Shown: positions 3,093 to 3,979 of the stretch, piece after piece
Layout of the letters: every line of letters starts with the position of its first letter
Position numbering within the stretch: position 1 is the first letter of the stretch
IMG/VR virus record: IMGVR_UViG_2537562231_000016
Length of the DNA stretch: 7,537 bases
From: a virus
Lineage: Duplodnaviria; Heunggongvirae; Uroviricota; Caudoviricetes
Direction: 5' to 3' (one strand)
Notes under the pieces: generated by a model
What the model was told of the DNA's origin: nothing
Databases searched by the model: none
What the model saw: the letters and a program-made list of their open reading frames with translations, nothing else
Program-made: the position numbers and the translations under genes

Positions 3093-3285
3093 GGTTCTTT
3101 CCACCATCTGAAAAATGATTCTTTAAAATACCTGACATGTAATACAGAAAAAACACAAAACCATACCTTAAATAAAAACCTCATCATCAAGCAGATATGC
3201 ATGGATAAACTACAAGACGAGATATAAACCACCCTGCATTTAAATAAACAATAAACAACATCAGAAAAATAATTCTGCTCTATGG

Positions 3286-3312
3286 TTTACAATCAAAAAT
3301 ATCATTTATACT
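3286..3312 (+). promoter_or_regulatory. Candidate sigma70 promoter for the plus-strand orphan ORF (-35 TTTACA at 3286-3291, -10 TATACT at 3307-3312, 15-nt spacer)
   Basis: Hexamers read directly in the AT-rich island about 40 nt upstream of the ATG at 3353. Spacer is shorter than the 17-nt optimum, so this is tentative. Confidence 0.3.
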
Positions 3313-3352
3313 TTTCAGAACATCACCAGCAAGGCATAAACAAGGAAACTAA

Positions 3353-3688
3353 ATGAAGTGGATTGTGATTGATACAGTTATCCAGCCATCATGCGGAATA
3401 TCTTTTTCAGTCATATGGAGTAAAATAAAATTAATAATCTGGTATCAATCGGATGCTTTCTTACCTCCTGAAAGTATATTTACACTGACTCACACAGGCA
3501 TCATGCTCAATAACAAAGTGCTACCTGTAACCATTTACAACGTAGTACCATTCAATAAAACATTCTGGAATTTAATCAAAAACAGCCAGGAATGCCCTAC
3601 AAATACAGATAACGTATTGAATGAATGCTTTAATAACCGTTGCACTCTGCAAATATGTCCTTATGGGCTAAAACAACAAAGTCCATAA
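3353..3688 (+). CDS. Hypothetical protein (111 aa) in an AT-rich island, antisense to the late operon; no recognisable family
   Basis: ORF of 336 nt in roughly 30% GC DNA, where stop codons are frequent. AAGGA Shine-Dalgarno sequence 6 nt upstream of the ATG (caAGGAAactaaATG). Five Cys residues, four of them in the C-terminal third. No homology recognised. Confidence 0.4.
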
Positions 3689-3722
3689 GGAGTTTACTCA
3701 CATCTGACAAAATCAATATAAA

Positions 3723-3744
3723 CAGCCCCTCCGGAGAGGGGCTG
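3723..3744 (-). terminator. Perfect 9-bp GC-rich hairpin (CAGCCCCTC-cgga-GAGGGGCTG) followed on the minus strand by a U-rich tract; putative intrinsic terminator for leftward transcription and boundary of the AT-rich island
   Basis: Inverted repeat read directly. Minus-strand downstream sequence is TTTATATTGATTTTG. The plus-strand side lacks a T-tract. Confidence 0.4.
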
Positions 3745-3979
3745 GAGAGTGGCGCTATGTGCCATTGCATGGTGCCGGGTGCCTCCCGGTGAATTCAGTA
3801 CCAGCACCTGAATCCGCGATTATCCCATATACCTACTCGCTGATTGCCCCTCCGCACAGGGGGATTCACCATGCCAGTTTCTTTTAACAAACTCCCCGCA
3901 AACCAGACAACAGTCAACCGCCTAAATTGTGAGACATTTAAAAAAAAGGCCCACAAAAGCGAGCCAGGGAAAATAAGTG

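Follow-up and report, generated by a model that had tools for sequence, protein, structure and literature searches.

iraL, an RssB anti-adaptor gene, as a lambdoid prophage late-region cassette beside an empty stx insertion point

The DNA analysed here, referred to below as the window, is a stretch of 7,537 nucleotides from a virus record (Caudoviricetes; IMG/VR IMGVR_UViG_2537562231_000016), throughout which the late genes of a lambdoid prophage occupy the minus strand (Table 1). Their order, with Q followed by the methyltransferase, three tRNAs, nanS-p and the holin, is that given in an initial annotation of the same DNA, and the coordinates agree. Between the tRNA cluster and nanS-p lies a gap of 872 bp (3108-3979), in line with the roughly 870 bp first estimated. 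The gap holds an open reading frame of 111 codons on the plus strand, antisense to the phage late genes, and, between this frame and the tRNAs, a predicted gene for an sRNA of the STnc100 family.

On its left the slot is bordered by nanS-p, a conserved phage gene that is full length in the window. The start of nanS-p is ambiguous, since the longest reading frame begins at 3107 (MVERTMAFK...) and PGAP begins the gene at 3092 (MAFK...). The tRNA with anticodon CAT (4154-4229) is called tRNA-Met by ARAGORN and tRNA-Ile (ileZ) by PGAP and by its homologue in phage 933W; the latter naming implies a lysidine-modified CAT anticodon. Just downstream of Q, at about 5790-5830 on the minus (late) strand, a GC hairpin, CCCGCCGCCTGGCGGG, is followed by TTTTTT; it folds with -15.2 kcal/mol (z=-1.6) and looks like the tR' terminator of the pR' leader, at the position of 6S-RNA/StxS-type RNAs in Stx phages. 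At the other end of the window, an IS1 end abuts the region downstream of the DUF1327/YdfR gene, beside the lysis genes, and has probably severed the lysis cassette on its endolysin side; its presence there suggests that the prophage is decaying. The part of the window left of 358 has contiguous coverage in 0 complete E. coli genomes, and the 40-bp IS1 junction has no exact match among GTDB representative genomes; the DNA may come from a Shigella rich in IS1 or from an E. coli that has not been sampled.

Table 1 Features of the window, in order of position.
Feature	Position	Strand	Details
IS1 end	1-358		InsB C-terminus 76-342; terminal inverted repeat ends at 358
DUF1327/YdfR protein	521-865	-	late region
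P21-type holin	870-1163	-	late region
nanS-p-type SASA carbohydrate esterase	1236-3107 (PGAP start 3092)	-	Pfam DUF1737, SASA, DUF6645
AT-rich iraL cassette (island)	3094-3717	.	624 bp, 32.9% GC
iraL sigma-70-type promoter (predicted)	3286-3312	+	-35 TTTACA 3286-3291, 15-nt spacer, -10 TATACT 3307-3312
iraL start 3320 and 5'UTR	3320-3352	+	published 5'RACE end
iraL CDS, RssB anti-adaptor of the IraM/IraL/RssC family	3353-3688	+	111 aa, ATG start
STnc100-family sRNA gene (predicted)	3714-3903	-	Rfam RF02076, 132.4 bits (gathering 47), model positions 1-206, full length
9-bp GC-rich perfect hairpin, 4-nt loop	3723-3744	-	-20.8 kcal/mol, then TTTATATTGATTTT
stx/moron-CDS insertion point, empty	3937-3967	.	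933W flanks and CFT073 insert
Terminator-like hairpin and T8	3948-3965	-	directly downstream of last tRNA
Phage tRNA cluster, 3 tRNAs	3980-4229	-	tRNA(CAT), tRNA-Arg(TCG), tRNA-Arg(TCT)
DNA methyltransferase	4279-5328	-	late region
Small ORF	5479-5763	-	late region
Antiterminator Q	5903-6724	-	Pfam Antiterm, 167 bits
RusA	6721-7095	-	late region
DUF968 protein	7108-7440, extends beyond	-	late region

The translation of the plus-strand frame is 100% identical to IraL of CFT073 (C_RS06710, WP_000871291.1), and the two coding sequences differ by one synonymous change. The NCBIfam model NF007393, 'anti-adapter protein IraM', matches residues 1-110 of the 111 with 162 bits (cut-off 121; E=4.7e-48), and phmmer aligns residues 1-78 without gaps to chain A of the IraM crystal structure 8TWD, solved in complex with RssB (E=9e-32). 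IraM of E. coli K-12 is 62% identical over 107 residues; when this alignment was set against the RssB-contact residues quoted in the literature (PMC10844676), C14, F18, W30, I61 and Y62 were found to be kept, and T13S, L75I, H63N and I64V were found as changes. From these sequence matches, the frame is iraL, a member of the IraM/IraL/RssC family. No Pfam-A family was found for the protein, and it falls into PHROG 4407, which is labelled 'unknown function'; the orphan status hinted at by the Pfam-A blank was overturned by NCBIfam, the PDB match and the PGAP annotation. The reading frame described at first is thus present and real, and the view that a frame this long is improbable by chance was borne out by dinucleotide-preserving shuffles of the island, 10 of 2000 of which yielded an ORF of at least 111 aa (mean longest ORF, 57 aa). 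Other small ORFs in the gap, at 3078-3227, 3759-3887 and 3844-4050 (all on the plus strand), have no Pfam or NCBIfam match; the latter two, which overlap STnc100 or a tRNA, are probably spurious.

iraL, a prophage-borne gene of E. coli and Shigella that protects RpoS from degradation, is c1429 of uropathogenic E. coli CFT073 and was described by Hryckowian et al. [quoted passage not shown] A fragment from -100 through the CDS sufficed to raise sigma-S in K-12, and the location of the gene was called 'the potB genomic island' (PMC4045071). For CFT073, later papers report a rise in iraL mRNA upon a shift to 37 C and raised IraL levels in a fur mutant.

Upstream of the gene, sigma-70 -10 and -35 elements had been predicted for iraL (PMC4045071), and hexamers identical to those of CFT073 were read from the window sequence ahead of the start site mapped in that work. 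Its 5'RACE end, ACATCACCAGCAAGGCATAAACAAGGAAACCA (PMC4045071), matches window positions 3320-3351 at 31 of 32 bases, with which the rightward transcription from about 3315 proposed earlier, and the promoter proposed with it, agree. The gene's own Shine-Dalgarno sequence was found as AAGGAA at 3342-3347, 5 nt upstream of the ATG. Three substitutions separate this region from CFT073, at 3292 (beside the -35), at 3319 (position -1) and at 3350 (between the Shine-Dalgarno sequence and the ATG). A consensus promoter scan did not flag the iraL promoter, because it demands a spacer of 16-18 nt and the spacer here is 15 nt. The other plus-strand candidates of the scan, 3245-3273 and 3404-3431, are no more than shuffle expectation.

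The gene and its promoter sit in DNA of deviant composition. Sliding GC drops to 0.295-0.35 over 3101-3700, from 0.53-0.57 on the left and 0.49-0.55 on the right, and the island as delimited by comparison with Stx phages has 600-bp flanks of 56.2% and 51.8% GC, which upholds the initial description of an AT-rich segment of about 600 bp and about 30% GC between flanks above 50%. Homology to the Stx phages ends at 3093 and picks up again at 3718, so that the alignment proposed to define the breakpoints places the edges at 3093/3094 and about 3717/3722; the matching interval in the Stx phages, 225-262 bp long with about 48% GC, is replaced here by the island. At the left edge, homology to the esterases of 933W and the Stx1 phage stops at the nanS-p start codon (3093) exactly, and the iraL island therefore supplies the ribosome-binding region of the esterase. 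The cassette is absent from 933W, AP005153 and PPwrbA_EH2201, though both flanks are common to all three. A moron, in the sense that Juhala et al. 2000 are said to have given the term, is an extra, autonomously transcribed unit that lies between conserved phage genes, is variably present and has a deviant base composition; the iraL cassette is absent in relatives, has 33% GC against 52-56%, and carries its own promoter. No dedicated plus-strand terminator of the cassette was found. Of the description as an uncharacterised moron at the virulence-cargo position, what stands is a cargo gene of foreign composition that has its own transcription, runs antisense to the late operon and lies between the tRNAs and nanS-p; what falls is 'uncharacterised', the gene being iraL.

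The right edge of the island meets the STnc100 gene, which lies on the late-gene strand between the empty stx slot and iraL and converges with the latter; members of this family are also found downstream of stxB in 933W, an Stx1 phage and Shigella phage 75/02. The hairpin at 3723-3744, thought at first to bound the island, is present and perfect, but it corresponds to the terminal stem of the Rfam STnc100 model and is followed by a U-rich tail on the minus strand only (the plus-strand tail, GGAGAGTGG, is not U-rich). By its sequence it is the predicted intrinsic terminator of STnc100. It is kept in PPwrbA_EH2201 and in the Stx1 phage AP005153, and is therefore part of the conserved backbone rather than a boundary of the island. 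A bidirectional action of the hairpin that would also serve iraL was considered, but the plus-strand tail, poor in U, gives no ground for claiming it. PGAP calls a partial pseudogene, 'hypothetical protein', over STnc100 at about 3759-3884 on the plus strand, which is probably spurious. The induced phage vB_EcoS-640R1 (L004 5001-5825 and 6077-6305) carries, besides iraL, the STnc100 segment twice; the two copies have diverged (97% and 73% identity to window 3720-3944) and are separated by small hypothetical genes. The -35 of its iraL is TTTATA, not TTTACA, and is perhaps the JJ1886 iraL2 -35 variant of the IraL paper.

We located the island relative to stx by comparing five loci, namely 933W (Stx2), the Stx1 phage AP005153, Shigella phage 75/02 (Stx1), the stx-less PPwrbA_EH2201 and CFT073. 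Window positions 3942-4300 align with the tRNAs of 933W and its annotated 'possible terminator upstream of the stx genes' (the hairpin at 3948-3965 is homologous to this 933W feature, given there as 'possible rho-independent terminator upstream of the stx genes'), and positions 3846-3936 align with sequence that starts 42 bp past the stxB2 stop. The flanks of stx2AB thus map to 3936 and 3942, and the place of the 1.3-kb stx2AB cassette in the window is therefore a point at about 3937-3942, which is empty here. CFT073 has a 642-bp DUF3927 insert (L005 2568-3209) between the equivalents of window positions 3944 and 3968; since this insert lies at essentially the stx2AB point, the stx site takes up cargo recurrently and is a hot spot separate from the iraL slot. 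The island is about 220 bp from the stx insertion point, on the far side of STnc100, and its gene is on the opposite strand. The initial annotation had placed the island in the stx cargo slot proper, a placement that these alignments contradict; its statement that the window holds no stx-like sequence or remnant is correct, as searches of the window for stx1 and stx2 gave only short, chance-level matches that lie outside the gap or bear no relation to it (best E=0.38 by tblastn and 0.27 by blastn).

The interval between STnc100 and nanS-p is occupied in 933W by AsxR (RF02703, 88 bits) and in phage 75/02 by AgvB (RF02702, 56.6 bits), both on the strand antisense to the late genes and abutting the 3' end of STnc100. 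Neither family (RF02703/RF02702) has an Rfam match at E<=1 in window 2950-4000. By this alignment of positions, iraL stands where the Stx phages have the AsxR/AgvB anti-sRNAs and is oriented as they are; the place of stx is a different one.

The distribution of the segment was determined in 5426 complete E. coli genomes. By megablast, the full segment 3108-3979 is present in 1428 of them, at least 12 of which are 100% identical over the 872 bp; PGAP annotates the frame in these genomes as 'anti-adapter protein IraM', with the same RefSeq protein in the 100%-identical ones. The promoter and CDS (3250-3700) occur in 1446 of the genomes as 1606 copies, up to 3 per genome and all at least 90% identical, and iraL is also found in the induced phages vB_EcoS-640R1 and relatives. 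The labels 'orphan' and 'uncharacterised' therefore do not fit a gene whose protein is identical to the studied CFT073 IraL, which PGAP names routinely and which 27% of complete E. coli genomes carry. The initial annotation had also named two outcomes that would count against it, a conserved lambdoid intergenic region with neither frame conservation nor expression, or an stx remnant; neither is what was seen. The region is indeed widespread, but its frame is conserved, expression of the gene is published, and no stx remnant was seen. Co-occurrence with stx was searched with chimeric queries in which the iraL island was joined to stx2AB or stx1AB and both parts had to be covered; in none of the 5426 complete genomes did one late region carry iraL along with stx1 or stx2. 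Their slots being distinct, coexistence is possible in principle, and the two can share a genome on different prophages, as exemplified by O104:H4, an Stx-positive type of which a strain carries iraL, elsewhere in its chromosome.

Taken as a whole, the segment is, with a probability of about 0.93, a functional iraL lysogenic-conversion cassette of a lambdoid prophage, horizontally acquired, AT-rich, furnished with its own sigma-70 promoter and antisense to the late operon. What was established here is that the protein and the promoter hexamers are those of CFT073, where the cassette lies and how common it is; the biochemistry is that published for the identical protein. In a lysogen, iraL would be expressed from its own sigma-70 promoter (start 3320), independently of antiterminator Q, and the 111-residue IraL would bind the N-terminal receiver domain of the adaptor RssB. 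RssB could then not hand sigma-S (RpoS) to the ClpXP protease, sigma-S would be stabilised, and the general stress (RpoS) regulon would be raised even in exponential growth. We infer that the window's own copy is expressed in this way. Its AT-richness may place iraL under H-NS-type or temperature control, and on induction Q-antiterminated late transcription would cross the gene in antisense and might shut it off.

The foremost alternative, which we consider improbable, is that the copy is silent or decaying, that is, that iraL is present by descent and is now unexpressed or useless in a defective prophage with a substituted promoter region. The IS1 end beside the lysis genes, with a junction absent from complete E. 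coli and GTDB representative genomes, and the substitutions relative to CFT073 at 3292, 3319 and 3350 would fit such decay, and JJ1886 provides a precedent in an iraL copy with a -35 point mutation and of unknown activity (PMC4045071). Yet TTTACA and TATACT are intact, the CDS is one synonymous change from that of CFT073, and the 872-bp segment recurs unchanged in the 12 or more identical genomes. The CFT073 iraL prophage is likewise degraded (truncated nanS-p, IS200), and iraL is functional there; expression from the gene's own promoter means that a viable phage is not needed.

Still less probable, in our estimate very unlikely, is that the island is an uncharacterised orphan moron standing in place of the stx operon at the toxin-cargo position. 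Its foreign composition, its location between the tRNAs and nanS-p, the Pfam-A blank, the PHROG label and the lack of any late region shared with stx1 or stx2 among the 5426 genomes all led in this direction. The protein is, however, identical to a characterised one and passes the NCBIfam IraM cut-off, by which 'uncharacterised' is already refuted, and the stx point lies across STnc100 from an island that replaces the AsxR/AgvB segment. That the island is a non-coding AT-rich regulatory spacer, such as an H-NS nucleation site or a nanS-p upstream region, with a fortuitous ORF, has a negligible chance of being right: AT-rich DNA of this kind is typically bound by H-NS and shuffled islands occasionally yield a frame of this length, but the frame is kept in 1606 copies annotated as an intact protein, has a homologue with a solved structure and has a published genetic and biochemical function, which already refute such a reading.

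Within the functional iraL cassette reading, a further proposal is doubtful, although we rate it above the alternatives just described. In it, the iraL cassette has displaced the anti-sRNA partner of the convergent pair and, unlike AsxR or AgvB, is without its own terminator, so that its transcripts might stop at, or read through, the STnc100 hairpin; the 3'UTR would then be antisense to STnc100, and the convergent genes, together with Q-driven late transcription, might regulate each other. If this were true, convergent interference would link a phage sRNA and the lysis-lysogeny state to the stabilisation of RpoS. That iraL and stx apparently exclude each other from a common late region could reflect such incompatibility, and not phage lineage alone.

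iraL and its significance are already known, and the additions made here are small and positional only. iraL is mapped as a lambdoid late-region moron in the anti-sRNA position, convergent with STnc100 and beside the stx slot, and was never found in one late region with stx in 5426 complete genomes. This can be used in the annotation of stx-negative lambdoid prophages, and it means that the slot takes protein as well as RNA regulators of host physiology. The finding opens no new question.

The closest known system is iraL of CFT073, with which the window shares the identical protein, identical promoter hexamers, 31 of 32 bases of the 5'UTR and the neighbourhood of a tRNA cluster, an STnc100 segment, antisense iraL, DUF1737/nanS-p and holin. 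In CFT073 a DUF3927 gene fills the stx slot, IS200C separates Q from the tRNAs, and nanS-p is truncated, whereas the window has an empty stx slot, a DNA methyltransferase after Q, a full-length nanS-p and the three promoter/5'UTR substitutions. The relation to K-12 IraM (YcgW), the Mg2+-starvation anti-adaptor, is that of a family member (NF007393) at 62% identity with an ungapped beta-barrel core (residues 1-78), and iraM too is an AT-rich gene (34% GC) beside prophage DNA, that of e14. In contrast, locus and regulation differ, and only about 140 bp around the gene start align between K-12 iraM DNA and the island (79%). IraL acts in log phase and binds the RssB N-terminal domain only, whereas IraM contacts both RssB domains (PMC4045071, PMC10844676). 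The K-12 iraM neighbourhood (L008 7579-8703) has 31% GC and lies by e14 and the DUF1398 gene ycgX; a DUF1398 gene (ydfO) is also present in the CFT073 iraL prophage. There are hints in this that the K-12 iraM locus is a remnant of a similar prophage region.

AsxR and AgvB are anti-sRNAs that Stx and other lambdoid prophages carry at their 'convergent sRNA' moron site (Tree et al. 2014, PMC4104026). With them iraL shares the slot between STnc100 and nanS-p, the orientation antisense to the late operon and convergent with STnc100, an own promoter, and the reprogramming of host regulation from a lysogen. They are Hfq-dependent RNAs of 51-60 nt, with their own terminator, that sponge the host sRNAs FnrS or GcvB (PMC4104026), whereas iraL is a protein gene that acts post-translationally on RssB/sigma-S. 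iraL and the stx1AB and stx2AB cassettes (933W, AP005153, 75/02), finally, are all cargo of the part of the late region that follows Q, pR' and the tRNAs and precedes nanS-p. The stx genes have the post-tRNA terminator on one side and STnc100 on the other, are carried on the late strand and depend largely on Q read-through; iraL, in contrast, lies beyond STnc100 on the opposite strand, has its own promoter and bears no sequence similarity to them.
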